Source of the DNA: an uncultured bacterium
GTDB taxonomy: Bacteria > Krumholzibacteriota > Krumholzibacteriia > LZORAL124-64-63
NCBI GenBank assembly: GCA_963732385.1
Contig: CAVSZB010000008.1
Coordinates: 352,001 to 416,000, forward strand
Direction: 5' to 3'
Length of the DNA stretch: 64,000 bases
Part shown: one piece after another, positions 3 through 33,071 of the stretch
Layout: every line of letters begins with the position of its first letter
Numbering within the stretch: position 1 is the first letter of the stretch
The notes under the pieces: generated by a model
Seen by the model: only the letters and a program-made list of their open reading frames with translations
The model's database searches: none
What the model was told of the DNA's origin: nothing
Program-made: the position numbers and the translations under genes

Positions 3-1172
3 GCGCAGTCCGGGGGGCAGGTCGGCGACGTTGGCGCGGTGAAGCTGCTGCCGTCCGGACCGGAGCTCGAGGTGCTCACGACGATTGGCGGCGAGGAGGG
101 CCCGGCCATGGTGGTGGCGGGGCCGGCGGCCGGAATCCTGGCCGCGTTGCGCGCCGCGGTCGGCGTGCGGCTCACGGTCGACGGCGCCTCGCGCGGCCCG
201 ACGATGCGGCACCACACCGCGACCCACCTGCTGCACGCCGCGCTGCGGCAGGTGCTGGGCGACCACGTCGAGCAGGCCGGCAGCGAGGTCGCGCCGGACA
301 AGCTGCGCTTCGACTATCGGCACGACGCCGCGCTGTCGCGCGAGGAGATCGCGTGCGTGGAGGCGATCGTCAATGCCCAGGTGCTCGCCAACGCGCCCGT
401 CGTGGCTCACGCCGGCGTGCCGCTCGCCCAGGCCAGGGCGCGCGGCGCGATGGCGTTGTTCGGCGAGAAGTACGGCGAGACGGTGCGCATGGTCGAGGTG
501 CCCGGCTTCTCGCTCGAGCTGTGCGGCGGCACACACGTGTCGCGCACCGGCGACATCGGGCCGTTCCGGATCGTGGCCGAGACCAGCAGCGCCGCCGGCG
601 TCCGCCGCATCGAGGCGGTTGCCGGCGATCGCGCGCTCGCTTTGGCGCGGCAGGAGCGGGAGCAGCTCGCCGCCGTGGCCGGCCTGCTCCGCCGCGACGG
701 CGGCGCCGCGGCCGACCAGGTGCGCGCCCTCATCGCAGAGCGCGACGCCCTGCGCCGCGAGCTGCAGGACCTGCAGCGGCAGTCGGCCCGCGACGGCCTC
801 GGCGACGCGCTCGCCGCTCCCACCGACGTGAACGGCCTGCGCGTGGTCGCCGCGCGCGTCGATGCCGACGGCCGCGACGCCCTGCTCGCCCTCGGCGACC
901 ATGTCCGCGACAGGCTCGGCACGCTGGGCGTCGTCGTGCTCGGCGCGGAGTGGGAGGGCAAGGCGACCCTGCTCGTCTCGCTCACCCCCGACCTCGTCGC
1001 CGCCAAGCGTCTGCACGCCGGCGACATCGTCAAGGCGATCGCCGCCCAGGTCGGCGGCCGCGGCGGCGGCAAACCGAACACGGCGCAGGCCGGGCTGCCC
1101 GACGCGGCGAGCGTCGAGCCGGCGCTGGCGACAGCCGTGGAGGTAGTGCGGGGAAGCGACTCGGGAGCCTGA
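3..1172 (+). CDS. alaS: Alanyl-tRNA synthetase, C-terminal part (5'-truncated by window edge)
   Basis: Frame is open from base 3 (AQSGGQVGDVG); editing motifs HHTATHLLH and ELCGGTHV; ALFGEKYG; C-terminal DHHA1 motif GGRGGGKP. Confidence 0.96.
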   Translation, partial: AQSGGQVGDVGAVKLLPSGPELEVLTTIGGEEGPAMVVAGPAAGILAALRAAVGVRLTVDGASRGPTMRHHTATHLLHAALRQVLGDHVEQAGSEVAPDKLRFDYRHDAALSREEIACVEAIVNAQVLANAPVVAHAGVPLAQARARGAMALFGEKYGETVRMVEVPGFSLELCGGTHVSRTGDIGPFRIVAETSSAAGVRRIEAVAGDRALALARQEREQLAAVAGLLRRDGGAAADQVRALIAERDALRRELQDLQRQSARDGLGDALAAPTDVNGLRVVAARVDADGRDALLALGDHVRDRLGTLGVVVLGAEWEGKATLLVSLTPDLVAAKRLHAGDIVKAIAAQVGGRGGGKPNTAQAGLPDAASVEPALATAVEVVRGSDSGA

Positions 1173-1191
1173 TCGTCCGTCGCGTCCCGGC

Positions 1192-2547
1192 TCAGGCCGC
1201 CGGAACCGGCGCGGCGGCCGCGCACGGCAGCCACAGCGTGCAGACGGTGCCGCGGCCCGGCAGGTCGCGCAGTTCGAGTTCGCCGCCGAGATTGCGCGCG
1301 AGATCGCGCGCCAGCGGCAATCCGAGGCCGATCCCCCCGGTGGCGCGCGTGAATGAGCCGTCGAGCTGTTGGAACGGCTCGAAGGCCTGTGCCAGGCGCT
1401 CGGGGGCGATGCCGGGGCCGTTGTCTTCGACTTCCAGGCGCACGACGGTGGCGCCGTCGCGCCGGTCGCGCAGCGCCCGCAGCGTGATGCGGCTGCCCTC
1501 CGGACTGAACTTCGCGGCGTTGCCCACCAGCTCGTCGAGGATGCGGCGCAGGTGGCCGGGATCGCACAGCGCCGGGGGCAGGGTCGGATCGAGTCGCAGG
1601 ACGAACTCGAGCAGGTCTCGCGCCAGCCCGGGACGGCGCTCCTCGTGGTAGTCGCCGAGCAGGGGAGCCAGGTCCGTAGGCGTCGTCGTGACGGAGACCA
1701 GGTCGTCGCGCAGCTCGCGGAAGGTGAGCAGGTTCTCGATCATGCTGCGCAGCCGTCCCGCCTGCGCGATCAGTTCGGCCAGGAACTCCTGCGACTGTGC
1801 GGGCCCCAGCGTGCCGGACCGCAGCAGGTCGGCGTACGACAGGATGACGGTCAGCGGCGTCTTCAGCTCGTGGTGCAGGTTGTCGAGGAACTGCTGCTTG
1901 AGCTCGTCGAGTTCCTGCAGCCGGGCCCGCGCCTGGCGCAGCTCGCGGTTCTGCTCCAGGGTGCTGGCGTGCAGCTGCGTGTTGTCGAGCGCGACCCCGA
2001 GGTGGTGCAACGACGCCTGCAGGATGCGCAACTGGCCCGGCGAATACGGTCCGCCGGCCACGTGGCGGCCGAGCGCGAGGGCGCCGATCGGCCGGCCGCT
2101 CGAGAAGAGCAGGCCGAACAGCCCCAGCCTGGCCCCCTCGGCCAGGGCGTGGGCCGCCGGATCGAGCAGCGCTCCCAGCTCCTCGACGAAGAACGGCTCC
2201 GGGTGATCGTCGCCCGCGGCCACGATCCGCCCGACGCACAGCTCGCCCAGCGCCTCCGCCACCCGCGTGGGGATGCCGAGGCTGCGCAACAGCACCGGGC
2301 GCCCGCTCTTGCGCGAGACCACCCAGAGCGCCGCCGAGGCGGTGCCGAGGTTGCCCATGAACTTGAGCAGACCCAGTTCGGCCACGCGGTAGAGGTCGCC
2401 GGTGGCGTGGATCTCCTGGCTGAGCTCCAGCAGGGCCTGCAGGCTCAGCTCCTCGAGCGTACGCGGAGCCTTCCGGTCGCCGGCGGGGACGTCGACGCGC
2501 GGCGGCGACGCTGCCGGGTCGTGGAGCGAGGGCGATAGCGTGTTCAT
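1192..2547 (-). CDS. Cytoplasmic GAF-domain sensor histidine kinase
   Basis: N-terminal GAF-like region and coiled coil; H-box HHELKTPL, N-box ELVGNAAKF, G1 DNGPGI, G2 GGIGLGL; no TM or REC domain. Confidence 0.9.
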   Translation of the reverse strand: MNTLSPSLHDPAASPPRVDVPAGDRKAPRTLEELSLQALLELSQEIHATGDLYRVAELGLLKFMGNLGTASAALWVVSRKSGRPVLLRSLGIPTRVAEALGELCVGRIVAAGDDHPEPFFVEELGALLDPAAHALAEGARLGLFGLLFSSGRPIGALALGRHVAGGPYSPGQLRILQASLHHLGVALDNTQLHASTLEQNRELRQARARLQELDELKQQFLDNLHHELKTPLTVILSYADLLRSGTLGPAQSQEFLAELIAQAGRLRSMIENLLTFRELRDDLVSVTTTPTDLAPLLGDYHEERRPGLARDLLEFVLRLDPTLPPALCDPGHLRRILDELVGNAAKFSPEGSRITLRALRDRRDGATVVRLEVEDNGPGIAPERLAQAFEPFQQLDGSFTRATGGIGLGLPLARDLARNLGGELELRDLPGRGTVCTLWLPCAAAAPVPAA

Positions 2548-2548
2548 G

Positions 2549-2902
2549 TCACCGTTCCGTTCCGGCCAGGGCCCCCTCGAGCGACGGCGAAATCTCCAGG
2601 AACTGGTCCAGGTTGAGCAGCTCGAGCACCTGCGTCACCCCGCTGCGGGGCGCCGCCAGGACCAGCTTGCCGCCCGCCGAGCGGAACTCCTCCGTCAGGA
2701 GGAGAAACGTGCCGAGGCCGCTCGAGGCGACGAACGTGACGCCGTCGAGATCGATCACCAGGCGCGAGCAGCCGCCCTCGATCAGCTCGGCGCAGCGCTC
2801 CCGCAACTGCTGGGCGCCAGGGGCTTCGATGCGGCCGCGCAGCCGCAGCACCGGCAGGTCGTCCCGGCCGTTGCCGAGCGTGATCTCCAACTGGTCAGAC
2901 AT
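2549..2902 (-). CDS. STAS-domain anti-sigma factor antagonist (RsbV/SpoIIAA-like)
   Basis: 117 aa; LRGRIE, IDLDGVTFVASSGLG (phosphoacceptor Ser motif), GGKLVL, VLELLNLD. Confidence 0.93.
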   Translation of the reverse strand: MSDQLEITLGNGRDDLPVLRLRGRIEAPGAQQLRERCAELIEGGCSRLVIDLDGVTFVASSGLGTFLLLTEEFRSAGGKLVLAAPRSGVTQVLELLNLDQFLEISPSLEGALAGTER

Positions 2903-4973
2903 GAGGTGTCTCCTCCTCCGCCGGTACGGTGTCCGGCTCGAATCGCAGCAGCGTCAGGTTGCCCGACGGAGTGCCGGGCAGGTAGCTGACCTTCCGCATG
3001 GCCGCGTGGACGATGCGCAGCCCCAGACCCCGGCCCTGCAGGCGCACCCGCGGGTCGTTCAGGTCGGGGAAGCGCCAGTCGGCCGGGTCGTAGGCGCGAC
3101 CCCGGTCGGTGAGCAGGAACCAGCCGCCGGAGCGGTCCGGCGCCGGGCGCCAGGCGATCGTGATCTCGCCCTCCGCGTCGCCGCCGTGGCCGTGCTCGAC
3201 GATGTTGGCCGCGAGCTCGTACAGGCACAGTTCGGCGATCTCGCGCGGGGCCGATCCCAGTGCGCGCAGGCAGGGGCAGGCGTCGAGCCAGCCGCGGATC
3301 GCCGGCAGCGCGCCGCGTCTGACCGGCAGTCGGAGGCGATGGGCGTCGCGGAAGTCCGCCGCGATCTGCTGCCAGGCGGGATCCGCCGCGGCGGCCGGTC
3401 CGTCGCGTCGCGTGGTCGCCGGTCCGGCCGCGACCGTGGCCGGCGCGCGCCCCACGACCACCAGCGTCAGGTCGTCGCCCAGCGGCGCGCCGCCGGTCCA
3501 GGCGGCGTGGGCCCGCTGCAGCGCCGCCAGGAGCCGCTCCGGGCCGCCCGGTCCGGCCTGCGCGGCGATCGTGCCGAGCCGCGGCAGGCCGAATTCCTCG
3601 CCGCTGGCGTTATTCGCCTCGGTCAGGCCGTCGGTGTACTGCAGGAGCAGGTCGCCCGGCCCGAGCACGGTGTCGTCATCGCAAACGGTGCGCGCCAACG
3701 CGCCGTCGCGCCGCACCGCGCCGATCGGGATGCCCTTCGTGCGGAACCACTCGAGGCCGCCGTCGCGCGCCCGCCAGACCAGCAGGGGGTTGTGCCCGGC
3801 CGAGGCGAAGCGGAGAGCGCCGCTTGCCGGGTCGAGCAGGCCATAGAACAGCGTGACGAAGACACCGGGGCGCAGCGAGTCGACCAGGCGCTCCTCGAGC
3901 GCGACGATGGCCGCGGCGGGGGAGTCGGTCTCCTCGCGCAGCGAGCGCAGCAGGACCGCCAGCATGGAGGTCACGAGGCAGCCGCCCAGCCCCTTGCCGG
4001 CGACGTCGGCGATGACGATGCCGACCTGTCCGTCGGCGCGCCGGAACACGTCCCAGTAGTCGCCCCCCACCTCCGAGGCGGCGCGGTAGGCGCCGTGCAC
4101 GGCGAAGGGGGGCGCCGCGAGCGGCGCGCGGGGCATCAGCGACTCCTGGATGCTGCGCGCGAGGTCCATCTCGTGCGACAGCCGCTCCTTCTCGATCAAC
4201 TGCTCCTGCGAGGCCTTCAACTGCGTCGCCATGCCGTTGACCGCCTCGGCGAGGCGGCCGATCTCGGTGCGGTCGCGCAGGCGCAGCGGCGTGTCGAGGT
4301 CGCCCCGTCCGATGCGGGCCAGCCCCTCGCGCAGCAGCCCGAGCGGGCGCAGCAGCAGCGACATCAGGCCGAAGGCCGCCGCGCTGCCGGCGACCAGCAG
4401 CCCGGCGGCCAGCGAGACCAGGGTGCGCCGCGAGCGGGTGACCTGCCGGTCGAGGTACGCGCGCTTCAGCGCCACGACCGCGGTTCCGAGCGGCTGCCCG
4501 TCCCGCAGGGTGACCGGCACGGCCGCGATGATGCGGTGCGCGTCGCCGAGCAGGCGCTCGCCGTCGCGCAACGGCTGTCGCGACGCCACCGGCCGGAGGC
4601 CGGCGAGGCCGGTGTAGGCTTCGCCGAGCCGTCGCGCATCGACATCCGCCTGGATGCGGCCGTTGCGGTCGAGCACGACCACCGATTCGAGGTCGTCGCG
4701 GCGGGCGGTCATTTCGGTGACGAGCGGGCAGAGCGTCAGCTCCGGGAACTCCGCGAGCAGAGCGTCGGTGCCGGCCAGCGCGAGGTTGCGCGCCTCGAGC
4801 AGCAGCCGCGCCTCCACCTCGGCGGTCAGGCTCTCCCGGGCGTTGTGCTCGGCAACCCCGCCGACGGTCAGGATCGTGACCACGACCAGGCCGACGGCGG
4901 CCAGGCCGATCACCAGGCGCATGCTCACCGCGCGCGCCGCCCGGTCCCCGCCCCGTCCGTTGCCACTGTTCAT
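2895..4973 (-). CDS. Membrane sensor PP2C (SpoIIE/RsbU-like) phosphatase with HAMP and C-terminal RsbW-like HATPase domain
   Basis: Two TM helices flank an extracytoplasmic domain; HAMP (GDLDTPL..TEIGRLAEAVNGM); PP2C motifs VGGDYWD, IADVAGKG, YTDGLTEA, DDLT; C-terminal ELAANIVEHG...DRGRAYDP...GRGLGL. Start chosen at ATG 4973 (AGGGA upstream); 4991 is an alternative. Confidence 0.9.
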   Translation of the reverse strand: MNSGNGRGGDRAARAVSMRLVIGLAAVGLVVVTILTVGGVAEHNARESLTAEVEARLLLEARNLALAGTDALLAEFPELTLCPLVTEMTARRDDLESVVVLDRNGRIQADVDARRLGEAYTGLAGLRPVASRQPLRDGERLLGDAHRIIAAVPVTLRDGQPLGTAVVALKRAYLDRQVTRSRRTLVSLAAGLLVAGSAAAFGLMSLLLRPLGLLREGLARIGRGDLDTPLRLRDRTEIGRLAEAVNGMATQLKASQEQLIEKERLSHEMDLARSIQESLMPRAPLAAPPFAVHGAYRAASEVGGDYWDVFRRADGQVGIVIADVAGKGLGGCLVTSMLAVLLRSLREETDSPAAAIVALEERLVDSLRPGVFVTLFYGLLDPASGALRFASAGHNPLLVWRARDGGLEWFRTKGIPIGAVRRDGALARTVCDDDTVLGPGDLLLQYTDGLTEANNASGEEFGLPRLGTIAAQAGPGGPERLLAALQRAHAAWTGGAPLGDDLTLVVVGRAPATVAAGPATTRRDGPAAAADPAWQQIAADFRDAHRLRLPVRRGALPAIRGWLDACPCLRALGSAPREIAELCLYELAANIVEHGHGGDAEGEITIAWRPAPDRSGGWFLLTDRGRAYDPADWRFPDLNDPRVRLQGRGLGLRIVHAAMRKVSYLPGTPSGNLTLLRFEPDTVPAEEETPHV

Positions 4974-5008
4974 GTTCCGGTCCCTACGCATGCGCCCGCC
5001 CGTTTCCA

Positions 5009-6958
5009 CTAGGAGCCGCCGAGGACCCGGCGAATCCCGGCCTGTTGTTCGTGTGCCCGTTCCAGGTAGCCCTTCGCGCGGCGGTCGTCCGGATCGATGT
5101 GCAGTACCCGCTGCCAGTGCGTCGCCGCCTCGTCGAGCCGGCCGGCGGCGAAAGCCTCCATGCCGAGCGTGAGATATTCGCGCTTGAGCGCCTCGGCCGC
5201 GCGCGCGTACGCGGGGTCGGCGCTCCAGACAAGTTCCCAGTAGGCCACGGCCTCGCGGGGTCGCCCGGCGTCGAGCGCCGCCAGGCCGCGCCGGTAGAGG
5301 TCGTCGACTTCGCGGCGGCGCTGCGCGCTGAGCGGGGCCGGCGCCGGGGGCGCTGCCGGCCGGGGCGCCGGGGCGACCGTCGCCGGGGCCGTCCTGTCGG
5401 CCGCCGGTCGCGGCGTCTCGGCGGCGCGCCGCGTTGCGGCGAGCGTCGCGGCGGTGCGGGCGGCGATCGCCGTTTCCGTGCGTCGCAGCATGTCCGTGGC
5501 CTCGCGGTCGTCGGGGGCGGCCGCGACGACCCGCGCGAACCGTTCGCGCGCCGCCAGCAGGCTGTCGGCGGCAAAGGCGTCGAGCGCGCGCGAGAACAGT
5601 CCGCGCAGTTCGAGCGAGCGGGCGGCCAGGCGATCCCCCTCGGCGCGACAGCGGGCCAGCTCGCCGGCCAGCCTGGCGTCGCCGGGGACCAGCTCGGCCG
5701 CGCGGCCAAGCGCCAGGGCGGCGGCGGCGTGGTCGCCCGTCTTCATCAGGCGGTCGGCCTGGGCGCGCAGCGCCGCGACTTCGGTGGAAGCGAGGCGCGG
5801 ATCGTCCGGCTCGAGCACGCGCAGCAGGCCGAGGATCTCCCGCGCCTCGTCGGGACGGCCGGCGGCGAGCGCCCCTTGCGCCCGGGCGGCGAGCGAATCG
5901 GCGCGCGCCCGGCGCCGGGCGTCGAACGCGGCGGCCAGCCGCGCCTGGAGCGCCGCCTCCCGCGCTTCCAGGGTCGCCTCGCGGCTCTCGGCCACGGTCG
6001 GCCCGAACATCAGCGAGATCCCGATCCGGTGGATCGGCTCGAGCGGCGTGTCGGCGAAGACGTAGTCGACGGTCAGGCCGTTCCACCGGACGGCGGCGCC
6101 GGCGGTGAGAGATCCGTGGTCCAGACCGGCCCGCAGGGCCAGCAGGGCGAGAGGCTGCAGTTCGCAGCCGGCCTGCAGGCGCGCGTCCATGTCGCGTGTC
6201 TGTTCGACGTCGGCCGTCAGCACCAGGCGCCCCTCGCTGCCGAGCCTGCGGGCGAGCGCGGCGCCGAGCCGCGCCCCGAACGGGTCGCGCACGGTCTCCT
6301 GGTCGAGGCGGAGCGCCGGCTCGGCGAGGTTGCGCAGCGCCAGGCCGACGGTCAGGTCGGTCGCCGGTCCTACTCCGCGCCAGGCGGGGACCGGGCGGAT
6401 CAGCAGCCCGACATCGAGGCCGATGCCGGCGTCGCTGTAGCCGGCCAGACTCTGCCGGCGCAACTTGACGGCGGCGCCCAAGCCGGTGGCCGCGCCGAGG
6501 CGGCGCCCGTACGCCAGCCCCAGTTCGGTTTCGGAGTCCTCGATCTCGTCGCCGAGCCGCACGTTGCGTTCGTCGCGCGGGTCGATGCCGCCGGCGCCGA
6601 AGCGGCGGAAGGTGACGGCGGCGGCGCCCCAGCGCCAGCTCGGGACCACCAGGCCGGCGAACTGCTCGCCGAAGCCGAGGCCGACCAGGTCGGTGTGCGA
6701 CGCCTGCAGTTCCCTCCGTGCGACCCAGCCGAGGCCGCCGGGGTTCCAGAGCGACCCGCTGGCGTCGTCGGCCAGGGCGGCATAGGCGCTGCCGAGTGCG
6801 AGGGCGCGGTTGCCGGCGCCGGTGGCGAAGAGCGAGCGCCCGCCGGCGTCGTCACCGGCGCGCGCGCTGCCGACCGGAGCGCCGAAGATCGCCGCGGTCA
6901 CGAGCGCGGGCAGCAGGCAGGCCGGCAGCCGCGCCGATGTCGCCCTCCGCCGGCTCAT
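5009..6958 (-). CDS. PorV/PorQ-family outer-membrane beta-barrel fused to a C-terminal TPR region
   Basis: Signal peptide; family N-terminal motif GAGNRALALGSAYAALADDASGSLWNPGGL; amphipathic beta-strands; then helical TPR-like repeats (LYRRGLAALDAG..AVAYWELV; AATHWQRVLHIDPDD). ATG overlaps the upstream stop (ATGA). Confidence 0.82.
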   Translation of the reverse strand: MSRRRATSARLPACLLPALVTAAIFGAPVGSARAGDDAGGRSLFATGAGNRALALGSAYAALADDASGSLWNPGGLGWVARRELQASHTDLVGLGFGEQFAGLVVPSWRWGAAAVTFRRFGAGGIDPRDERNVRLGDEIEDSETELGLAYGRRLGAATGLGAAVKLRRQSLAGYSDAGIGLDVGLLIRPVPAWRGVGPATDLTVGLALRNLAEPALRLDQETVRDPFGARLGAALARRLGSEGRLVLTADVEQTRDMDARLQAGCELQPLALLALRAGLDHGSLTAGAAVRWNGLTVDYVFADTPLEPIHRIGISLMFGPTVAESREATLEAREAALQARLAAAFDARRRARADSLAARAQGALAAGRPDEAREILGLLRVLEPDDPRLASTEVAALRAQADRLMKTGDHAAAALALGRAAELVPGDARLAGELARCRAEGDRLAARSLELRGLFSRALDAFAADSLLAARERFARVVAAAPDDREATDMLRRTETAIAARTAATLAATRRAAETPRPAADRTAPATVAPAPRPAAPPAPAPLSAQRRREVDDLYRRGLAALDAGRPREAVAYWELVWSADPAYARAAEALKREYLTLGMEAFAAGRLDEAATHWQRVLHIDPDDRRAKGYLERAHEQQAGIRRVLGGS

Positions 6959-9900
6959 CGTAATACCGCCACCTTCCGCAGCAGCCGCTCCTCGCGGCCG
7001 TCGCCGAACTTCACGCGCAGTTCCGCCACGTAGACGCCGCTCTGCACCGCCACGCCCCGGCCGTTGCGCCCGTCCCAGCAGTCGTCCTGGTGCAGGCCGG
7101 CGGCGCGGTCGGCGTCGGCCACCGGCGTCGCCACCGGCTCGCCGCGCGGCGTGAAGATGCGCAGGGTGACCCGGGCGGCCGACGGCAGGTCGTACACGAA
7201 GGTCGTCGCCTCGCGGCCGGCGGCGAACGGGTTGGGGAAGTTGGCGTAACTGTCGGCCAGACCGGCCGCGGCGAAGGTGCCGGCTTCGGTCCAGAACGGG
7301 AACTGCCGGCCCGCCGGCGCCTCCACGCGCACGGCGAGCAGCGCGCCGTCGGGCTGCAGCACCGCCACGTCGTCGCGATCGAGGCCGAGCCGGAGGCCGC
7401 CGGCCGGGGGCGGTGCGCGGAAGCGGGCGCGCAGCTCCAGCCCCAGCGTCGCGCCCGGCGCGATCTCGATCGGCTGCGGCGGGACCAGCAGGGCCAGCGC
7501 CGCGTCGGCCGCGACGGTGTCGGCGACGGCCCAGACTTCGTCGCCGGCCAGCGCGATCACCGCGCGCAGCGCCGCTCCGGCCGGCAGCGCCGCGAGATCG
7601 GGCGCGGCCGCGCGCAGCGCCACCGCTGTCACCACGATGCTGCCCGATCCGGCGGTGGCGGGGTTCGTCAGCGTCAGCCGGCCGACCGCGCACTCGGCGC
7701 CGTCGGTCGGCAGGACCGGAGGCAGCGCCGGGGCGAAGTCCGCCACGAGCAGGTCGGCGGGCGGCTGCAATACCGTCAGCCCGGACGAGAGCGGCAGTTC
7801 CGCTCCCGGCGCGGCTGCCAGCGCGACCGCGGCGCCGAGGTTGGCGTCGCGGGCGTCGAGCCCCTCCGCTTCGACCAGCAGTTCGAACGCTCCGGCCGGC
7901 GCCCCCGCTGCGAAGTCGACCACGACGTCGAGTCCCACCAGTTCGCCGGCGAAAAGCCGCAGTCCGCCCAGCGGCACGCTGACGGCGTCGCCCCGCGGGC
8001 TCTCCTGCGTCGCCAGCACAGCCCCATCGCGTCGCACGACGACCCGGTCCAGGTAGCGGGCGGGGTCGAGGCGCGCGCGGGTCTGATCGCGGCAGACCAG
8101 GCGCACGGTGTCGCAGACGATGGCTGCGGTGCCGATCGCGCCCGGGTGGCGCAGGGCGAGCGCCAGCGCCGTCACGCCGCGGGCCCCGACGGTCAGAGCG
8201 GACGGCAGGCGGGGCGAGCCGGCGGCCTGCAGTTGCGTGGCCGCCGCCTCCACCCGCAGGATCGGGCCGGCGAGCGGGTCGGTGGCGAAGGTCACCGCAA
8301 CGGCGGCGCCGGTCCCCTCGTCGCGCGCCCGGCAGCGGGCGGGGGAGGCGAGACGCAGGCTCAGCGCGCCGACCGGCGCGGCGGCGGCCAGGTCGGCCGT
8401 CACGATCAGGTCGACCGGCGCCTCGGCCGGCACCGCCAGGTTGGGCACGATGACGAGCGACAGCACGGTGTCGGCGCCCGGCGCGACCGGCCGGACGGCG
8501 AGCGCGATCCCGTCGCGGCGCAGGGCGAGAGCGCTCAGCCAGGCGCCCGGATCGGGCACCGCGGCGCCCAGCGTGTCGCAGAGGGTGAAGGCGAGCGTGT
8601 CGACGAGGACGTCGCTCGTAAGATCGGGCAGGCCCGGGTTCGCCAGCCGCAGCGCCAGCAGCGCCACGCCGGTCTGCCCGGGGCCGGCCAGCGGCTCGGG
8701 CAGCGGCAGCGCGGCGAGTTCCAGGCCGCTCGCGTCGGCGGTCACCTCGCCCAGGCCCGACAGGACCGGGTAGCTTCCCTCCGCCAGCACGATCGCCACG
8801 GCGGCGCCAGCGACGTCGTCGAAGGCGGTCAGGCCGCCGGTGTCGGTCAGCGCGAGGCGGAACCGGGGCACGGTGGTCGTGGCGGCGATGTCGAGCCGGA
8901 TGCCGAGCGTGACCGGCTCGTTCACGGTGATCAGCACCGGACTCGTCAACGCCAGATCCAGCGCGGCGCCGGAGTCGGCGAGCCGGGTCAGGTCGATGTA
9001 GGTATGCGTCCCCTCGTTCACGACCACTCGCGACAGCAGTGCGGCCGGCACGATGCCGGCGCCCGATTCGTCTTCGAGCCGCAGGCGCAGGCGGTCGAGT
9101 CGGACCGCCGCGCCATCGACCATGCCCGGGTTGATGAGCGTCAGGCTGAGCGGCACGACGCCGGTCTGCCCGCGGCTCACCTTGAACGGGCGGTTGGGCA
9201 CCGGGAAGAGCTCCAGGTCGTCGGCCGGCTGGAACACGCGGTGCGGGTTGGTCGTGGCGGTGAGGGAGCGGCGCGGCAGGCCGTCGCCGGCGCTCGTGCC
9301 CTGGGCCAGGGCCGAGAGGGTCAGCGTCCCGACCGCCGTGGCCCGACAGGTCCAGGCCAGCGTGTCGACGTCGCCCGACGCGAGATCGCGCGGGACGGGC
9401 AGGCTCCCCTCGAGCGTGAGCTGGCCGGCGCCGTCGATCGCCAGGCCGGTGACCGCGATGCCGGTCACGGTCTCGGCGCCGACGTTGCGCACGATCAGGC
9501 GCGCGGCGACGAGCTGGCCAAGCGTGCTGGCCGGAGCGCCTACCTCGAGCGTGGCGAGCAGGGGGGCCGTGCTGAGCAGGAGCTGCGACGGCGCCGCGAC
9601 CGCGGCGTCACGGGGTCCGTCGTTGCCCGAGCTGACGGTCACGCCGTCGCGCGGCACCGCCAGCCGCACCGTGGCGGAATCGGTCGGCGCGGACGACGCG
9701 GTCACGACCGCGAACAGCCGCAGGCCGCCGGCGGGAATCGGCTCGGTGAGCAGCGGGCTGCGCCAGGCGCCGTCGAGGAAGATCAGCGGCGTCAGTTCGA
9801 CGTCGTCGCCGCCGAAGCGTCCGTCGCCGCCATCGCGCAGGAGCCGGACCCCGGCCAGGTCGGTCGGCGTTGCGGTGCCGCGATTCTCGAGCGTCAGGCC

Positions 9901-12900
9901 CAGCAGTCCGTCGGGTGCATAGCCGTTGGCCGGCACGGTCAGGTCGAGCGCGACGAACGGCCCGTCGTCCGGTCCGAGCGTCAGCGCCGGCGCGGGCCCG
10001 GTCGCCAGCTGCGCCGCCACCATGCCGTCGACGACGGCCCGGCCTCCGATGTCGAGCGGCCAGGCGGCCGCCACCTCCACCGCCGGCGTCACTGCGACCG
10101 CGTCCGGACCGGTCACCACGATCCCGAGGGCGTCGCCGTCGGCGGCCGTCAGGCTGATGTCCGCGGTCACGAACAGGGTGACGCTTTCCCCCGCCGGAAC
10201 GTCCACCTCCAGGTCGGCGAACGACGCCGAGCCGTCGCTGAACCAGGTCTCTCCGGCCGGCGGGTCGGTGGCGGGATCGTCGAGCGCGCCGTCCCGGTCG
10301 CCGTCGAAGCGCAGCTGCAGGCGGGGGAGGGAGGCGTCGAACTGCGCGGCGGTGCCGCCGTTGGGGCCGGCGCTGGCGTTGGCCAGGGCCAGGCGGGTCA
10401 GTCGGTGCGTCACCGTGTCGGGGTTGACCACCGCGAACCGCAGCAGAGGCGCGTCCGCCGCGCCGGGCGGGACCGTCGTGTCTGCGAGCGGTTCCGCGAC
10501 CAGCAGGATGCGGTCGGTGCGCGTGAGGACGAGCGCGTCGGTGGCCGCCACGTTCCGGTCGAGCGGACCGTCGTTCGCGCTCTCCATGCCGATCCCCGAT
10601 TCGGGCGGGCCGGGGATCGCGAAGCGGACGGTGCGTCCCTCCGTGGCGTCCGGCGCGACATCGGCCGTCACGAACAGGCGCGTTCCGCCCGGCGGCACGT
10701 CGAGCGCCAGTGCGGTCAGCTCCCAGCGCTCTCCGGTGAAGGCGAACACGCCGAGCCGGGTGTCGGTCGCCGCAAGGAACCGGCCGTCGCCGTCATCGAC
10801 CCAGGCCTCGACGCGGCTCAGGTCGGTCGGCAGGGCGCTGCCGAGGTTCACCACGTCGAGGCGCCGCAGCCGGTCCGGCGCGTAGCCGTTGGCCGGGAGG
10901 GTGACGTCGAGCACCGGCGCGCGCGTCGCGCCCAGCGGCAGTGTCGCCGCGGTCGGCGGGTGGATGGCGATCTGCGCGGCGACGCAGCCATCGACGACCA
11001 GCGGCGCGGCGGTGAGCGGCCAGGCGCCGCTGGTGGCGATCGTCGGTGTGAACTGCAGGTCGGCGGACGCCGCCAGGCCGGCGGCGAGCCGGTCGCCGTC
11101 GCGCGTGGCCAGCGCCACCGTGCCGGCGATCACCAGGCGCAGCGTGTCGCCCGGCGCCAGCGCGAGCGCCAGATCTGCGAACCGGGCGCGACCGGCGCTG
11201 AACGACGCGCTGACCGGCAGGCCGGTGGCGCGTGCGAGGACCGGCGTCAGGATGCCGTCCGTCTCCACGGCGAGCCGCAACTCCCGCCACGCGCCGTCGA
11301 GCTCAGTCGTGGTGCCCGGCCCCTCGCCGAGGTTGACCACGGCGAGCGCGGTCAGTGTCTCGGGCAGCGCCGCGGCGTTGCGCAGCGTCAGGGTGAGCAG
11401 GTCGGCGACGGCCTCGTCCGCGTGCGCGATCCGCCCCGCGCGCGCCGCCGCGGTCGCCTGCACCGCGCCGGCGGCCACGGTGACGGCCGCCGCCGCGCTC
11501 TCCTGGCCCGGCGACGGATCCGGCTCGGTCACCGCGGTCACGCCGGCGGCGCTGGCAAGGGTCAGGCCGGCCGTGCCGGCGGCGACCCGCGTCGTCAGCG
11601 TGAGCGAATCGGTTGCGCCCGGCGCCAGCACCGGCAGGTTCCAGATGCCGGTCAGCGGCTGCCAGGCGCCCGCGCTCGCGAGCGCGTCGACCGGCGTCAG
11701 CCCGGCCGCCAGCGTGTCGGTGACGGTCACCGCGTGCGCCGTGTCGGGGCCGGCGTTGTGCAGCCGCACGACGAAGGGGCAGAGACCGCCGGCCAGCGGG
11801 ACCGGCTCCACCGCGCGCTGGCTCAGGCGCAGGTCCGCCCCAGGCACGCGCACCCGCACGCTGTCGGCGTTGTCGCCGGGTCGGGGGTCGGAAAGGGTGT
11901 TGACGGTGGCCGCCGTCGGCCAGACGGTCGCGTCCGCCGCGTCCGGGGCGACAGTCGTCGTGAACAACAGCGTGTCGGCGGTCCCGGGCGCCAGCCACGC
12001 CAGCGACCAGCTCTGCGTCGCCGCGGACCAGGTGCCGGCCGTGGCCGTGGCGGCTCCGGGCACGAGCGCGTCGGGGATCCCCAGCGCGACGGTGATCGAT
12101 CGCGCCGTGTCCGGTCCCGCGTTCGTGAGCACGGATCTCAGGGTCACCGCTGCGCCCGGGAGGGCCGTGGTGGGCGTGGCGGTCAGCGCGACCGCCAGGT
12201 CGGCGTTGGCGACGGCAAGCGTGGCGGTCGCCGCGTCATTGCCGGGGGCGGGGTCGGCCTCGACCGCGGCGACGATGTCGGCGCGCTGGAGCAGGACTTC
12301 GCCGACCGTCCCGGCAGCGACCGTCAGACGCAGCCTCAGCGTTTCGGCGGCCGCCGGCGCGAGCGTCGTCAGGGACCAGACGGCGGCGGCGGGGAGGTAG
12401 ACGCCCGCGCCGTCCGCGAATTCCAGCAGCGACAGACCGACCAGGGGAGCTACGGCGATCGTGACGGCGTGCGCGGAGTCGGGCCCGGCGTTGGCGAGGT
12501 GGAGCGCCAGCACGACCGTGTCGCCCTCGGCGGCCTGCGGCCGGTCGAAGGCGGCCGCGAGGGCGAGGTCCGCGGCGGCGCCGACCACCAGGTGCCGCGT
12601 GGCGCTGTTGTCGGAGAGGTCGGTGTCTGTCTGGTCGAGGGCCACGATCGCGGCGGTGGCGGTCAGCGTGTCGTGACCGGTGGCGATCCACGCGCCCCGG
12701 CGCAGCAGGGCGGTCGCGCCGGCCGGCAGCGCCCCGACCGTCCAGATCCCGGAGTCGTCGTCGAAAGCACCGACGGTCGGGGCCGCGGTCCCGACGGTCA
12801 GGCCGGCCGGCAGGGCGAACGCGATCGCCAATCCGCCGGCGTCGCTGGGGCCGTCGTTGCGCGCCGTGACGGTGAAGGTGACGCTGTCCCCGTAGACGGC

Positions 12901-14988
12901 GGCGGGCGGCGACACTTCGAGGCCGAGCGCCAGGTCGGCGCCGGTGACGATCAGGGCGGCGGCGGCCCGATCGTTGCCGGGGTACGGGTCGGGCAGGTCG
13001 CGCGCCATGATGGCGGCGCGGTTGATGAGCGTCGTGCCGGCCGTGCCGGCCAGGACGGTTGCCGTCACCTGCAGCGTCTCGGCCGCGCCCGCCGCGAGCG
13101 CGCCGACGTCCCACCGCCCCGTTTCCGGGTCCCACGGCGTGCCGCCGCTCGCCTCCCACACCGACAACTCGAGTCCGGCGGGCAGCGTGTCGGCCAGCGC
13201 GAGCCCGTCGACCGGCAGCATTCCCGTGTTCGCCACCCGCACGGTGAAGCGGACGCTGTCGCCCGGATCGGCCTGCGCCGGCTCGACCCACTTGCCGACC
13301 TCGAGATCGGTGCCGTTGACGGCCACCGTCGCCACGGCCCGGTCGTTCGTCGAGTCGGGATCGGCCGGCGAGGAGCCGACGCAAACGGCGTTGTTCACGA
13401 TCACCGAGCCGGCCGTGCCGGGGCCGACGACGGCCCGCACGTTCAGCCACGCCTCCGCGCCCGCCGGCAGCGCGCCGCACAGCCACGCGCCGGTGGCCGG
13501 CGTGTAGCCGCCCTGGCTCGCGGTCGCCGTCACGAAGGAGAGGCCGGCCGGCAGCAGGTCCGCGATTTCGCAGTCGTCCGCGGTGGAAGGGCCGCCGTTG
13601 AGCACCCGCACCGTGAACGTCACCGTGTCCGCTTCGGACGGCGAGGGGCTGTCCACCGTCTTGGACACGCTCAGATCGGCCCCCGCCACGGCCACGTCGG
13701 CGGCGGCGGTGTCGTTGGCCGCGTTGCCGTCGGGCTGCTCGAGCGCCAGCAGACGGGCCACGTTGTGCAGCGTGTCGCCGGCCGCCGCCACGAGCGGCGT
13801 GACCGCGAGGTTCAGCAGCGCCGAGCCCCAACTCGCCAGGCTGCCCACGTTCCACTGCCCGGAGAGCGGATCGAAGCTCCCCTGGGACGCCACCACGCCC
13901 GTCAGTTCCAGGCCGGGCGGAAGCAGGTCGCTCACGATGACGCCGGTTGCGGGCGCGGTGCCGAGGTTTTCCGCCTGCACCATGTAGGTCAGCCCGACCC
14001 CGGCCACCGCCTGAGTGACGCTGGCTGTCTTGCGGACGGCGATATCGACGCCGGTGTCGGGGGCGAGGGCGACGTAGTAGTAGTAGTCGAACGTATGGTT
14101 GACCTCGTCGCGGGGGCCCACCGTGAAGCCGTCCGGAAGCAACGCCACGATGCCCCCGGCGACCGGAGCGCCCGGCGGGACCGGAATAGAGAGCGGATCA
14201 TTCGTCAGGCTGGCCCAGCGCTGCAGCGGCGCCCAGCCGCTCCAGCCCTTCACCATGACCCACACCGGCGGGCACGGGAGGCCCCCGATCGTCTGCGAGG
14301 CGCCGCCGTTGCCCCAGTAGCCGCCCTGGGCCAGGTTGGGCGAGGCGGCGTTCCAGGCGATCCAGTGATAGGTTTCGCCGGCGGCGTTGACGTCCTCGTC
14401 GCTGCCGACCTGGAAGCCGTTGGCAAGCAGGTTCTCGATCCGGTCGCCTGCGGTCCCTGAGTCGTTGAAGGGGAGGCTGGCGTTGCCGGTCAGGTAGGCC
14501 ATCCGCTGCCAGGCGCGATGCGCCGCCGCCGGCAGGATCACCACGTAGCCGGGCGTGAAGCCGAGGCCGGTGATCTCCCGGTTGTCGTGCCCGTCGCCGG
14601 AGTAGGAGCCTGCGGCCACGTTGCCCGGCTCCGCCTGCACGGCGAGCCACTCGTACCGCACCCCGGCGGCGTTGACGTCGGGGGCATTGCCGACGTCGAA
14701 GCCGTCCTCCGCGAAGCTCCGGATCAGATTGGCCTGAAGGGCGACCGCGTCGCCCAGATTCTTCGCGGTGTTGACCTGCATCGTGGCGGTCCGGGCGACC
14801 GTGGGGTAGAGCGGTTCGTGCGAGCGGACCAGCACGAAGGACGGCTGGAACCCGACGCCCGACACGGTGAGGCTGCCCCCGCCGTTGCCCACGTACGACC
14901 CGGTGGCCGTCTGGGCAGGCGCGAGCGCCGCCGACAGCAACAGCAGACAGGCGAAGCCCGCCGCCGCGCACCGCCTCCAGGGCGTCAT
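6955..14988 (-). CDS. Giant (~2,680 aa) secreted DUF11/Ig-repeat surface protein with C-terminal FlgD-Ig (T9SS-like) sorting domain
   Basis: Signal peptide MTPWRRCAAAGFACLLLLSAALAPAQ; 3 N-terminal G-x-Y-x-G-N/D-G repeats; 7 DUF11-like domains (DIAVRK/DLSVSK/DLEVGK...N.GP..A...D.LPAGL...W.VG.L); further Ig-like units; C-terminus NFPNPF...WDGRNGRG..VQSGVY...KVAVLR. Confidence 0.88.
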   Translation of the reverse strand: MTPWRRCAAAGFACLLLLSAALAPAQTATGSYVGNGGGSLTVSGVGFQPSFVLVRSHEPLYPTVARTATMQVNTAKNLGDAVALQANLIRSFAEDGFDVGNAPDVNAAGVRYEWLAVQAEPGNVAAGSYSGDGHDNREITGLGFTPGYVVILPAAAHRAWQRMAYLTGNASLPFNDSGTAGDRIENLLANGFQVGSDEDVNAAGETYHWIAWNAASPNLAQGGYWGNGGASQTIGGLPCPPVWVMVKGWSGWAPLQRWASLTNDPLSIPVPPGAPVAGGIVALLPDGFTVGPRDEVNHTFDYYYYVALAPDTGVDIAVRKTASVTQAVAGVGLTYMVQAENLGTAPATGVIVSDLLPPGLELTGVVASQGSFDPLSGQWNVGSLASWGSALLNLAVTPLVAAAGDTLHNVARLLALEQPDGNAANDTAAADVAVAGADLSVSKTVDSPSPSEADTVTFTVRVLNGGPSTADDCEIADLLPAGLSFVTATASQGGYTPATGAWLCGALPAGAEAWLNVRAVVGPGTAGSVIVNNAVCVGSSPADPDSTNDRAVATVAVNGTDLEVGKWVEPAQADPGDSVRFTVRVANTGMLPVDGLALADTLPAGLELSVWEASGGTPWDPETGRWDVGALAAGAAETLQVTATVLAGTAGTTLINRAAIMARDLPDPYPGNDRAAAALIVTGADLALGLEVSPPAAVYGDSVTFTVTARNDGPSDAGGLAIAFALPAGLTVGTAAPTVGAFDDDSGIWTVGALPAGATALLRRGAWIATGHDTLTATAAIVALDQTDTDLSDNSATRHLVVGAAADLALAAAFDRPQAAEGDTVVLALHLANAGPDSAHAVTIAVAPLVGLSLLEFADGAGVYLPAAAVWSLTTLAPAAAETLRLRLTVAAGTVGEVLLQRADIVAAVEADPAPGNDAATATLAVANADLAVALTATPTTALPGAAVTLRSVLTNAGPDTARSITVALGIPDALVPGAATATAGTWSAATQSWSLAWLAPGTADTLLFTTTVAPDAADATVWPTAATVNTLSDPRPGDNADSVRVRVPGADLRLSQRAVEPVPLAGGLCPFVVRLHNAGPDTAHAVTVTDTLAAGLTPVDALASAGAWQPLTGIWNLPVLAPGATDSLTLTTRVAAGTAGLTLASAAGVTAVTEPDPSPGQESAAAAVTVAAGAVQATAAARAGRIAHADEAVADLLTLTLRNAAALPETLTALAVVNLGEGPGTTTELDGAWRELRLAVETDGILTPVLARATGLPVSASFSAGRARFADLALALAPGDTLRLVIAGTVALATRDGDRLAAGLAASADLQFTPTIATSGAWPLTAAPLVVDGCVAAQIAIHPPTAATLPLGATRAPVLDVTLPANGYAPDRLRRLDVVNLGSALPTDLSRVEAWVDDGDGRFLAATDTRLGVFAFTGERWELTALALDVPPGGTRLFVTADVAPDATEGRTVRFAIPGPPESGIGMESANDGPLDRNVAATDALVLTRTDRILLVAEPLADTTVPPGAADAPLLRFAVVNPDTVTHRLTRLALANASAGPNGGTAAQFDASLPRLQLRFDGDRDGALDDPATDPPAGETWFSDGSASFADLEVDVPAGESVTLFVTADISLTAADGDALGIVVTGPDAVAVTPAVEVAAAWPLDIGGRAVVDGMVAAQLATGPAPALTLGPDDGPFVALDLTVPANGYAPDGLLGLTLENRGTATPTDLAGVRLLRDGGDGRFGGDDVELTPLIFLDGAWRSPLLTEPIPAGGLRLFAVVTASSAPTDSATVRLAVPRDGVTVSSGNDGPRDAAVAAPSQLLLSTAPLLATLEVGAPASTLGQLVAARLIVRNVGAETVTGIAVTGLAIDGAGQLTLEGSLPVPRDLASGDVDTLAWTCRATAVGTLTLSALAQGTSAGDGLPRRSLTATTNPHRVFQPADDLELFPVPNRPFKVSRGQTGVVPLSLTLINPGMVDGAAVRLDRLRLRLEDESGAGIVPAALLSRVVVNEGTHTYIDLTRLADSGAALDLALTSPVLITVNEPVTLGIRLDIAATTTVPRFRLALTDTGGLTAFDDVAGAAVAIVLAEGSYPVLSGLGEVTADASGLELAALPLPEPLAGPGQTGVALLALRLANPGLPDLTSDVLVDTLAFTLCDTLGAAVPDPGAWLSALALRRDGIALAVRPVAPGADTVLSLVIVPNLAVPAEAPVDLIVTADLAAAAPVGALSLRLASPARCRARDEGTGAAVAVTFATDPLAGPILRVEAAATQLQAAGSPRLPSALTVGARGVTALALALRHPGAIGTAAIVCDTVRLVCRDQTRARLDPARYLDRVVVRRDGAVLATQESPRGDAVSVPLGGLRLFAGELVGLDVVVDFAAGAPAGAFELLVEAEGLDARDANLGAAVALAAAPGAELPLSSGLTVLQPPADLLVADFAPALPPVLPTDGAECAVGRLTLTNPATAGSGSIVVTAVALRAAAPDLAALPAGAALRAVIALAGDEVWAVADTVAADAALALLVPPQPIEIAPGATLGLELRARFRAPPPAGGLRLGLDRDDVAVLQPDGALLAVRVEAPAGRQFPFWTEAGTFAAAGLADSYANFPNPFAAGREATTFVYDLPSAARVTLRIFTPRGEPVATPVADADRAAGLHQDDCWDGRNGRGVAVQSGVYVAELRVKFGDGREERLLRKVAVLR

Positions 14989-15351
14989 GGTCGTGCGCCG
15001 ATCAAGAATGATTCCCCCGCTGGCCACTGCCTGGGCCATTGCCGTTGCCGGACCCGGGACCGGGATGCCGATCGTTTCTGATCGGCAGCCTGCGCGGGTG
15101 GGTTGAGACTGGAATGCGAAGCCAGGAAGCCGTTTCCGGCCCCCGCCGGCCGACAGGCCCGCGCCCTGATTCCCTCACGAGCGCGCATTTTCGGCGGCGT
15201 CCGGTCGCAAGAATCCGGCTGCATCCCGGCGCAATCGTATCTATCATGTCAGGAAGCGCCCGGGGGGGGCGGCGCGGTTCGCCGGACTCCTTAAATGCCG
15301 GGGATCGTCATCGCCGGGACTGTGTCACTGCCCAGAATCCGGAGTTTCGCC

Positions 15352-16683
15352 ATGAACCAACGCCAGTTGCCTACGCTGATCGCCTGGGGATTGCTCACCT
15401 GCCTGGCGGCGACCGCGGCCGCGCAGGTGGTCTATGCGCCGACGCCCGGCAACGATCGCCGGCCGGGGTTCGCGCTCGACGGCGTTCATCTCGAAGGCGG
15501 CATCGTGCGGCCTTTGCGCGCCGAGGATGAGCCGATCATCGGGGGCGCCGTGCACCTGGGGACGGTGCTGGCGAGGTGGCTCGACCTGACGGTGGGCGCG
15601 CGTCGCTGGAGCAGCGACCTCGATGTGGACCGGTACGACCTGGCCGGAACCGGCAGGCTCAGGGATTTCCAGATCTACACCGGTCTCGAGTACGGGATGC
15701 CGGGCACGCTGCTGGGGGTGCGTCCTTACGCCGGTGCCGGTGTCGCGGCGCATTTCCTGGGCGCTGACATCCCTGAGAACCTTCCGCTCGAAGACTCACT
15801 CGACGGCTTCCGGTCGGGCGCCTGGACCGGCTTCGGAGTGATGACGGCCCAGGACGGCTTCGGTTTGCGCGTGCAGGCGCGCCGTGACTTCGTCGACAAC
15901 GCGTCCGCGTGGAGCTACACGATGGGGCTCGGCTGGTGGCCGCACCGGCACGCCACCAACGGCTACCGGCTGCGGGCTCCGCGCGCCGCTTACGTGGCGG
16001 TGGCGCCGACGGCCGTCGCCGCGCCGGCCGCGGAGGCGCCGGCGCCGTCCGCGCCCGTACCTGTGCCCGCTCCTTCGACCGGCGCCCTGGAGCAGTTGGC
16101 CGCGACCACGCGCACTCTGCAGGCGCGCGTCGACAGCCTCGAGCGGGCGTTGCGGGCGCGGCCGGTCGCGCCGGCTCCCGCCCCGGCGCCGCAGGCAGCG
16201 CCGGCGTTCGTTTCGCCGTTGCCACCGGCCGCGGCCCCCGATCCGCGCGCGGCCTTCGCGCGGGAGCTCGCGCGCGTGGCGGAAGGCTCGGGCGCGCCCG
16301 CAGCGCTGCGCCGCGAGACCGACCAGTTCGTGCTCTCGCTCGGCGGGTCGCTTACCTTCGCCACCGGCAGCGAGACGTTGGGCCTCGCGACCAGGGAGAC
16401 GTTGCGGCGGGTGGCCGCCCTCCTGCTGCAGAATCCGCAGGGGCGCGCGGTCATCGAGGGACACACCGACAGCATCGGCGACGCGGAACGCAACCGGCAA
16501 CTCAGCCTCGCGCGCGCCACGGCCGTGTCCGAAGAATTGCGGCGCCTCGGGGTGCCCGCGTCACGCCTGGAGGTCGAGGGCTACGGGGAGTCGCGGCCGG
16601 TCGGCGACAATGGCACGAAAGAGGGACGCACGCTCAACCGGCGCGTCGATCTGCGGTTTCGGGTGGAGGAGTCCCCGCGATGA
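15352..16683 (+). CDS. OmpA-family protein (N-terminal beta-barrel, Pro/Ala linker, peptidoglycan-binding OmpA C-terminal domain)
   Basis: GGAG RBS; signal peptide; barrel strands (RPYAGAGV); IEGHTDSIGDAERNRQLSLARA and NRRVD motifs. Confidence 0.87.
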   Translation: MNQRQLPTLIAWGLLTCLAATAAAQVVYAPTPGNDRRPGFALDGVHLEGGIVRPLRAEDEPIIGGAVHLGTVLARWLDLTVGARRWSSDLDVDRYDLAGTGRLRDFQIYTGLEYGMPGTLLGVRPYAGAGVAAHFLGADIPENLPLEDSLDGFRSGAWTGFGVMTAQDGFGLRVQARRDFVDNASAWSYTMGLGWWPHRHATNGYRLRAPRAAYVAVAPTAVAAPAAEAPAPSAPVPVPAPSTGALEQLAATTRTLQARVDSLERALRARPVAPAPAPAPQAAPAFVSPLPPAAAPDPRAAFARELARVAEGSGAPAALRRETDQFVLSLGGSLTFATGSETLGLATRETLRRVAALLLQNPQGRAVIEGHTDSIGDAERNRQLSLARATAVSEELRRLGVPASRLEVEGYGESRPVGDNGTKEGRTLNRRVDLRFRVEESPR

Positions 16684-16718
16684 GGGGCGACCGCAACGCA
16701 TCCCGCCAGGAGGGGACC

Positions 16719-33070: not shown

Positions 33071-33071
33071 C

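Follow-up and report, generated by a model that had tools for sequence, protein, structure and literature searches.

A widespread gene module of secreted cargo, arm-bearing barrel and Cache receptor with a probable role in trans-envelope signalling in uncultured bacteria

In 64,000 nucleotides from an uncultured bacterium of the phylum Krumholzibacteriota (positions 352,001 to 416,000 of contig CAVSZB010000008.1; hereafter the window), five genes on the minus strand encode a giant secreted protein, an outer-membrane barrel with a tetratricopeptide-repeat (TPR) arm, an inner-membrane receptor, a STAS protein and a histidine kinase. The conserved unit within this locus is a surface protein tagged with a C-terminal sorting domain (CTD), the barrel-TPR protein, and a receptor combining transmembrane helices, an sCache domain and a HAMP helix. 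This module is widespread, and its sequence features point to a probable role in trans-envelope signalling. An original prediction had joined all five genes into one surface-sensing system, in which cargo and barrel formed a dedicated pair linked to an inner-membrane receptor. It had staked itself on conservation of the arrangement, and the gene-neighbourhood check found the same order in more than 100 related loci, far beyond chance. The tie between pair and receptor thus stands, but its core consists of the first three genes rather than five; the five-gene system was dropped as a unit because loci can lack the GAF kinase and carry another output in place of the switch. The features of the locus are:

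6955..14988, minus strand: giant secreted protein, 2677 amino acids (aa); signal peptide (aa ~7-25), DUF7483-like head, DUF11 repeats (aa ~315-1190), all-β Ig-like stalk, C-terminal sorting domain
6958..7242, minus strand: FlgD-Ig-type CTD of the giant, aa 2583-2677, a locus-specific subtype with the end RKVAVLR
5009..6958, minus strand: PorV/FadL-fold outer-membrane barrel (aa ~34-318) with a helical TPR arm (aa 320-649), 649 aa
5018..5326, minus strand: C-terminal TPR module, the candidate receptor-binding tip; follows a disordered Pro/Ala linker and is the best-conserved part of the arm
2895..4991, minus strand: inner-membrane receptor, 698 aa (692 aa from the ATG at 4973); transmembrane helix 1 (aa 26-44), sCache_3 (47-188), transmembrane helix 2 (191-209), HAMP, SpoIIE/PP2C phosphatase, RsbW-type kinase (HATPase_c_2)
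4725..4760, minus strand: Cache helical-tip motif LL..PELTL.P, receptor aa 78-89; no other stretch of the periplasmic domain is as conserved
2549..2902, minus strand: stand-alone STAS protein, 117 aa; phosphorylation loop FVASSGLG, TIGR00377 above cut-off
1192..2547, minus strand: accessory cytoplasmic GAF-HisKA-HATPase histidine kinase, 451 aa; no transmembrane helix, no adjacent response regulator

All five open reading frames (ORFs), running from 14988 to 1192, were confirmed, and the tight packing ascribed to them was borne out by the ATGA overlap at 6955-6958, the 8-nt overlap at 2895-2902 and the 1-nt gap at 2548. The gap of about 35 nt described near 4990 has that length if the receptor starts at 4973, but shrinks to 17 nt with the start at 4991.

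Conservation of the three-gene unit

The main set comprised the 88 barrel-TPR loci left once 16 near-duplicates, the window itself and a fragment had been set aside. With a CTD profile of our own, a CTD-bearing gene was detected directly upstream of the barrel-TPR gene in 74 of the 83 loci with enough sequence, and seven of the nine that the profile missed have a protein with a divergent CTD at that place. On the other side, the receptor gene follows directly in 74 of the 76 non-redundant loci with at least 700 bp downstream, a count that takes in 6 convergent loci of the WOR-3 type; the two misses are a locus with the receptor upstream (L075) and one from which it is absent (L124). A receptor also lies behind the arm in 40 of 40 additional loci, which are profile matches on longer contigs and overlap in part with the first set.

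Across 155 genomes of the window's phylum, the arm was found in 92 and the Cache domain in 81, with 77 genomes having both, 59 neither, 15 the arm only and 4 the Cache domain only; the number of candidates that these searches scored in each genome was limited, and at least one arm, in G063, escaped detection. In the reverse test, the arm lies directly upstream of 96 of the 105 Cache matches in the phylum. The remaining nine consist of two at contig edges, two that are adjacent after all, two degenerate accessory copies, one preceded by no more than a weak TPR-like remnant, and two intact orphans. Arm loci without a Cache match number 24 of 120, and all 10 of those inspected encode a divergent receptor of the HATPase-HAMP-PP2C(-STAS) type. 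In the phylum around a record titled Eisenbacteria, the Cache domain occurs in 41 of 121 genomes and all 28 loci whose upstream sequence was long enough have the arm, while in the WOR-3-type phylum the Cache domain occurs in 22 of 121 genomes with a looser link to the arm.

The arm-receptor link outlasts rearrangement of the locus: the genes are convergent in L067-L073, the receptor comes first in L075, and switch genes are interposed in L271 and L272. As the link is kept in convergent orientation, co-transcription cannot explain it. The unit has also been lost as a block. At the same alaS site, a genome of the same genus retains a relic (L196, G001:C124, 4984-6932) in which one deletion, corresponding to window positions ~14845 to 3388, took the giant, the barrel, the Cache domain and the PP2C domain together, leaving the signal peptide of the giant fused in frame with the RsbW-type kinase and the STAS gene intact; a second deletion removed HisKA from the histidine kinase.

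Cargo, barrel arm, Cache head and interchangeable outputs

Domain searches of the giant recovered a DUF7483-like N-terminus and DUF11 in 7 stretches, and no catalytic or vWA domain; a hydrophobic segment at aa 7-25 was taken as the signal peptide. Its C-terminus matches FlgD_ig weakly (E 0.005, under cut-off), and aa 2580-2677 give weak matches both to FlgD_ig and to the C-terminus of type IX secretion system (T9SS) proteins; CHU_C and TIGR04131 have no match in the window giant, and one homologue matches CHU_C weakly (E 1e-4). AlphaFold2 (AF2) modelled the last 1148 aa as tandem all-β domains with a β-sandwich end, at a mean predicted local distance difference test (pLDDT) score of 89, and a fold search with the stalk returned only generic tandem-Ig matches with TM-scores below 0.2. 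The language-model clusters that rank best for the C-terminal half of the giant occur most often in Ca. Krumholzibacteriota. The CTD is 58-69% identical to the CTDs of close orthologous loci, whereas its identity to the remaining CTDs in the genome does not exceed 47%, a pattern of closeness to orthologous loci and distance from resident CTDs that fits a private cargo-barrel pair. It is the second weakest of the 87 FlgD_ig matches in the genome. Across relatives the cargo ranges from ~1000 to 3450 aa and bears distal DUF11, LamG/cadherin, CBM96, Big/invasin or FG-GAP domains; the distal part varies freely, with stalk and CTD conserved. The original terms adhesin, for the giant, and surface sensing, for the system, are best kept as putative.

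The barrel protein matches PorV_fam NF033709, the PorV/PorQ family, at 81.3 bits (cut-off 90), with TPRs also matched, and gives no match to NF033710 (PorV) at E 0.01. PorP/SprF (PF11751) likewise had no match on this protein or in the genome, where the genome-wide control also matched nowhere. In the AF2 model of the mature protein (48 sequences; pLDDT 90, predicted TM-score 0.61), 14 strands lead into long helices with TPR pairs, and a last TPR module is set off from these by a disordered linker. Structure searches ranked chain F of two T9SS complexes (8gl6_F and 6h3i_F), which we take to be PorV, first, ahead of the FadL family. The earlier designation of the protein as PorV therefore holds for the family fold; the protein itself is a sub-cut-off paralogue, and the PorU-linked PorV of this genome is a different gene. 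In barrels of this type a helical tail behind the final strand should be periplasmic, and since the arm comes after strand 14 it is predicted to lie there. For treponemal FadL-like proteins a helical tail has likewise been assigned to the periplasm, according to the accessible part of the report (PMC8407342).

Within the arm, the Pro/Ala linker falls below a pLDDT of 50 at mature residues 482-501, and the module behind it has a block conservation of 0.57-0.62 versus 0.39-0.53 in the proximal arm. The window barrel is the only arm-bearing PorV-family protein in this genome, and none of the genome's six TPR-less PorV-family barrels has a receptor gene downstream (34 of the genes called around these paralogues were scanned). 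Some of the top profile matches are barrel proteins with very long TPR arms, of 1160-1440 aa (P0001, P0097, P0103, P0107, P0122 and P0135). An apparent barrel-TPR-receptor fusion (P0027) was rejected as Rosetta-stone evidence, as its junction and Cache segment look frameshifted.

As to the export route, the genome encodes the SprA/Sov translocon (TIGR04189, 452 bits, cut-off 200), and a PorU-like gene (416 bits, cut-off 420) lies elsewhere in the genome, followed by the separate TPR-less PorV. Several TPR-less PorV-family paralogues of the same genome (L076-L081) stand directly behind proteins with atypical CTDs, among them an M6-like protease and a PorZ-like C-terminus, or behind a TonB-dependent receptor; this arrangement suggests further private cargo-barrel pairs.

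In the receptor, two hydrophobic helices bracket a domain matching sCache_3_2 at 27.8 bits (cut-off 28.4), and HAMP, SpoIIE and HATPase_c_2 were also matched. The best sequence match of the Cache profile in the PDB is DcuS (E 1e-9). The RYSHP and Arg-x-x-His residues of DcuS and CitA, presumably, form their carboxylate pocket; the column of the Arg in RYSHP is I or V in 62 of 62 Cache homologues, and the pocket His is kept in 52 of 62 with Asp in the window copy. The helical tip is better conserved than the pocket (L78 57/62, L79 57/62, P83 58/62, E84 58/62, L85 56/62, L87 61/62 and P89 56/62). In the periplasmic parts of the two proteins, conservation is highest in this tip and in the final TPR module.

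The output end of the receptor is variable in kind. The window copy has intact catalytic motifs, the PP2C motifs being kept in 40-41 of 41 homologues and the N-box of the RsbW-type kinase in 25 of 25. Of 66 loci, 51 have a PP2C output and 15 an HD-GYP output, and all HD-GYP motifs are intact in 17 of 17 proteins. On a quick LG+G4 tree of 62 barrel proteins, in which the joining of L045 and L046 is a long-branch warning, the output changes 3 times, at least 2 of these changes being forced by well-supported branches; in L152 the PP2C and HD-GYP types are adjacent on a single contig. A class III nucleotide cyclase is encoded directly behind the barrel-TPR gene in 7 loci of the WOR-3 phylum, with a CTD cargo upstream in 6, and these loci (L258-L264; CTD cargo, barrel-TPR, Cache-HAMP-class III cyclase) are good candidates for work with a cAMP reporter. 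At a contig edge (L255), a histidine kinase stands behind a TPR fragment. A further subtype (L044-L052, L165, L176-L181, L192-L195) has a receptor of ~1450 aa, ordered as HATPase, transmembrane segment, divergent Cache, HAMP, PP2C and helix-turn-helix, with up to 3 fused STAS domains and often a ParA/MinD-like ATPase and another STAS gene behind it. Accessory Cache(-HAMP) membrane proteins with a degenerate RsbW-like end were also observed (L175, 3111-4373; L189, 4108-5343), and are possibly decoys or heterodimer partners.

The two remaining genes of the window locus belong to this variable layer. A STAS gene comes after every one of 19 window-type receptors and after none of 11 receptors of the HD-GYP type, and Ser60 of the window STAS protein is at what we take to be the RsbV phospho-acceptor position. 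The predicted partner-switching cascade is thus borne out in its parts, namely PP2C, RsbW-type kinase and a STAS protein with the acceptor Ser intact, but it is just one of at least three outputs. The histidine kinase, whose GAF_2 match is weak (E 0.005) and whose HisKA and HATPase_c matches are above cut-off, is present in 8 of 19 window-type loci and keeps its H-box in 10 of 12 homologues. The anti-sigma reading attached to the receptor was abandoned: the locus holds no sigma gene, and across the genome SigB/F/G scores peak at 132 bits against a cut-off of 234, although other sigma targets are conceivable.

Weighing a relay through the arm against its alternatives

The features above lead us to favour the following course of events. 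The giant would exit through the SprA translocon and stay on its own barrel through its CTD, by analogy with type B CTD cargo kept by PorP/SprF. The conserved C-terminal TPR module of the arm, in its predicted periplasmic position, would dock on the Cache domain at its conserved helical tip, and load on the giant, or its gain or loss at the barrel, would shift the arm and send a signal through the second transmembrane helix and HAMP. Such a signal is probably generic, reporting attachment or occupancy, given that conservation covers the stalk, the CTD and the tips of arm and Cache domain but not the freely varying distal domains of the cargo. In the window lineage, the balance of phosphatase and kinase, whose motifs are intact like the STAS loop, would set STAS phosphorylation; in the weakest step of the scheme, the STAS protein would likely act on something other than a sigma factor, here probably the GAF kinase. 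In relatives, the same receptor head would instead drive an HD-GYP phosphodiesterase of cyclic di-GMP (c-di-GMP) or a class III cyclase.

An outside-in relay predicts just this combination: a fixed arm-Cache core, with cargo tips and intact output enzymes that can be exchanged. Hence we lean, with some reserve, towards the three-gene unit being such a relay, in which the arm tip touches the Cache tip and the state of the cargo sets the receptor enzyme. Evenly poised, in our judgement, is the broader proposal that these loci represent a new class of TonB-independent trans-envelope signalling over several uncultured phyla related to the Fibrobacterota-Chlorobiota-Bacteroidota group, with a shuttle barrel as transducer, a Cache domain that reads a protein, and a plug-in output that may be a Ser/Thr partner switch, a c-di-GMP phosphodiesterase, a nucleotide cyclase or, possibly, a histidine kinase.

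Several observations weigh against the relay. 1) L124 has a barrel-TPR gene without any receptor, and the intact orphan receptors L187 and L190 have no adjacent barrel, each of their genomes holding another complete locus. 2) In the WOR-3-type phylum, the arm lies within 1.5 kb in only 12 of 25 Cache loci, and the barrel is absent from the fetched stretch in 8 of 18. 3) A ~165-aa secreted protein replaces the giant in a subtype (L046, 11355-17323, and L166-L168) that has a strongly diverged barrel, receptor, RsbW and GAF kinase, with no STAS match and no detectable CTD of the locus-specific kind in the small protein; a giant adhesin is therefore not essential. 4) Most homologues retain the pocket-side GHxD motif of the Cache domain, with the His present in 52 of 62, which leaves room for a small ligand. 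5) The PorM/GldM motor was not found in the genome by profile, in a search whose control profile matched nowhere and which did not extend to PorK, L and N. 6) Covariation by mutual information with average product correction (87 paired rows, effective 72) has its top inter-chain pairs linking Cache F82 with the C-terminal TPR module, but the top z of 7.0 compares with 4.9-6.7 in 8 re-paired controls, clade markers dominate, and the top intra-chain pairs are clade markers as well. Covariation was accordingly dropped as contact evidence, being inseparable from phylogeny, as was the correlation of TPR and Cache identities (r=0.88), which is expected from linkage alone. 7) Operon linkage by itself can account for much of the co-occurrence, and the related genomes are non-independent.

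The last point leads to the first alternative, a co-regulated operon without contact, in which the Cache domain would sense a small molecule in the manner of DcuS or CitA, the output would control expression of the neighbouring surface protein, and the arm would be a chaperone or wall anchor. The proximity of the Cache profile to DcuS (E 1e-9), the conserved GHxD and the existence of orphan receptors all speak for it, as does the SiaABCD system, which ties a similar switch to aggregation without a barrel in the available part of its report (10.1101/674879). We nevertheless consider it unlikely, given that the DcuS Arg is absent from 62 of 62 homologues and the His from the window copy, that the helical tip is conserved more than the pocket, and that the link survives in convergent orientation, where co-transcription is impossible. 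In addition, 0 of 6 TPR-less barrels of this genome carry receptors, and this restriction of receptors to TPR-bearing barrels argues against mere co-regulation.

Alternatively, the Cache domain might bind the CTD of the cargo, or cargo stalled on the arm, prior to export and thereby report secretion load. There is a precedent for a T9SS CTD acting as the periplasmic ligand of a sensor kinase, the PorA CTD activating PorY in the portion of that report available (PMC12152298). The CTD of the window locus is moreover a highly conserved, locus-specific subtype, and a tiny secreted protein can stand in for the giant. The same small-protein subtype, however, is without a detectable CTD of this kind, and export sensing by itself leaves unexplained a long arm with a conserved distal module that is always fused when a receptor follows, so that we regard it as rather improbable. 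Very improbable is inside-out control, in which a cytoplasmic state would set the Cache conformation and the arm would make the barrel hold or release its cargo: it shares the contiguity evidence of the favoured relay and a HAMP helix can pass signals both ways, but the outputs are catalytically intact (PP2C 40-41/41, HD-GYP 17/17) and unrelated enzymes are interchangeable, whereas LapD of the LapD/LapG/LapA system, which follows such hold-and-release logic, has degenerate binding domains.

Relation to known systems and neighbouring genes

Signalling from surface contact to the cytoplasm is understood in few systems only for bacteria with two membranes. In TonB-dependent surface signalling of the FecA-FecR-FecI type, a periplasmic extension of an outer-membrane barrel contacts an inner-membrane transducer. 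The relay proposed here follows the same logic, but is not homologous: the barrel has 14 rather than 22 strands, the arm is a C-terminal TPR array, and a Cache-HAMP enzyme takes the place of anti-sigma factor and extracytoplasmic function (ECF) sigma factor, with no Pfam or NCBIfam match to plug, STN domain, FecR-like anti-sigma or ECF sigma in the proteins of the locus. With PorV of the T9SS the barrel shares the 14-strand fold, the top matches to chain F of 8gl6 and 6h3i and the PorV_fam similarity; it differs in falling below the family cut-off, in giving no PorV equivalog match, in its 330-aa TPR arm and in not being PorU-linked.

The remaining comparisons draw on the accessible portions of the cited reports. 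Type B CTD cargo is paired with cognate PorP/SprF barrels, and in the PG1035-PorP-PorE complex the cargo is surface-anchored via the barrel to a periplasmic partner (PMC9143113; PMC12618676), PorE having a TPR domain (PMC12773672). The likeness to the window locus lies in a cargo gene beside its own shuttle barrel, a specific CTD-barrel pairing and a periplasmic partner, whereas here the barrel is of the PorV family, the CTD is FlgD-Ig-like rather than TIGR04131/CHU_C, barrel and TPRs form a single polypeptide, and there is a transmembrane receptor that does not appear in the portions of those texts available. The FadL/PorV-like proteins TP0548, TP0859 and TP0865 of Treponema pallidum combine a 14-strand barrel with a C-terminal, TPR-containing helical extension that is presumably periplasmic (PMC8407342; PMC13749626), but their extensions are short three-helix bundles, they are read as nutrient transporters, and the accessible parts of these papers mention no cargo or receptor partner. 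In the PorA-PorXY-SigP system of Porphyromonas gingivalis the free CTD binds PorY in the periplasm (PMC12152298), which likewise has T9SS cargo feeding an inner-membrane sensor, but with no barrel arm and with another sensor and another output.

On the cytoplasmic side, SiaABCD places a PP2C phosphatase and an RsbW-type kinase on a STAS protein, with a target that is not necessarily a sigma factor, and controls aggregation (10.1101/674879), and SypE/SypA and BtrU/V/W represent non-canonical STAS outputs in biofilm or secretion control (PMC8256260). These systems differ in having no outer-membrane barrel, TPR arm or cargo, and in the loci described here the switch is replaceable. The window receptor scores 54 bits against the SiaA equivalog NF038263 (cut-off 700), and there is no GGDEF gene (SiaD) in the locus. 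The locus thus falls outside PorV proper, the PorP/SprF-type B pairs, SiaABCD, SigB-type switches and TonB-dependent signalling. The combined layout of cargo, barrel-TPR and Cache receptor was not found described in a literature search of incomplete coverage that was without supplements. The module is apparently undescribed as a combination, with cognate pairs, TPR-tailed FadL/PorV barrels and sigma-less switches each in print; new here are the definition of a core of three genes, the exchange of outputs for HD-GYP or a cyclase, the counts of how exclusively Cache domains follow an arm, exceptions included, and the loss of the unit as a block in a genome of the same genus.

Should the arm-Cache contact be real, it would define a compact three-part relay unrelated to TonB signalling, in which PorV-family barrels gain a signalling role and the Cache family a protein ligand. 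The natural output swaps offer ready reporters as well as specificity controls, some genomes holding two to four paralogous loci. By the same reading, the TPR tails of published FadL/PorV-like barrels, so far unexplained, may serve to bind a partner.

As for the surroundings of the locus, it is flanked by alaS on one side and on the other by a divergent gene:

15295-16683, plus strand: OmpA-domain protein with a barrel-like N-terminus

This gene was rejected as a part of the module, since 5 relatives yielded matches to its OmpA domain alone and no full-length orthologue. A sigma70-type scan of 900-15500 returned 0 promoters and 0 terminators, and is scarcely informative because the DNA has 75% GC and shuffled sequences give only 0.2 and 2.5. 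Next to the OmpA-domain gene, a secreted, barrel-like, Pro/Ala-rich ORF (16680-18332, plus strand) overlaps in a different frame with another on the same strand (17986-18975), the end of which is an OmpA-C-like-looking stretch; neither matches Pfam or NCBIfam, and the two are probably a single frameshift-split gene. Farther along the plus strand, a cluster resembling type II secretion or type IV pilus systems (28687-38735; ATPase, platform protein, several prepilins and secretin) lies beside a two-component pair, and two trypsin-like proteases, each with a FlgD-Ig CTD, are encoded in tandem at 58772-63855.

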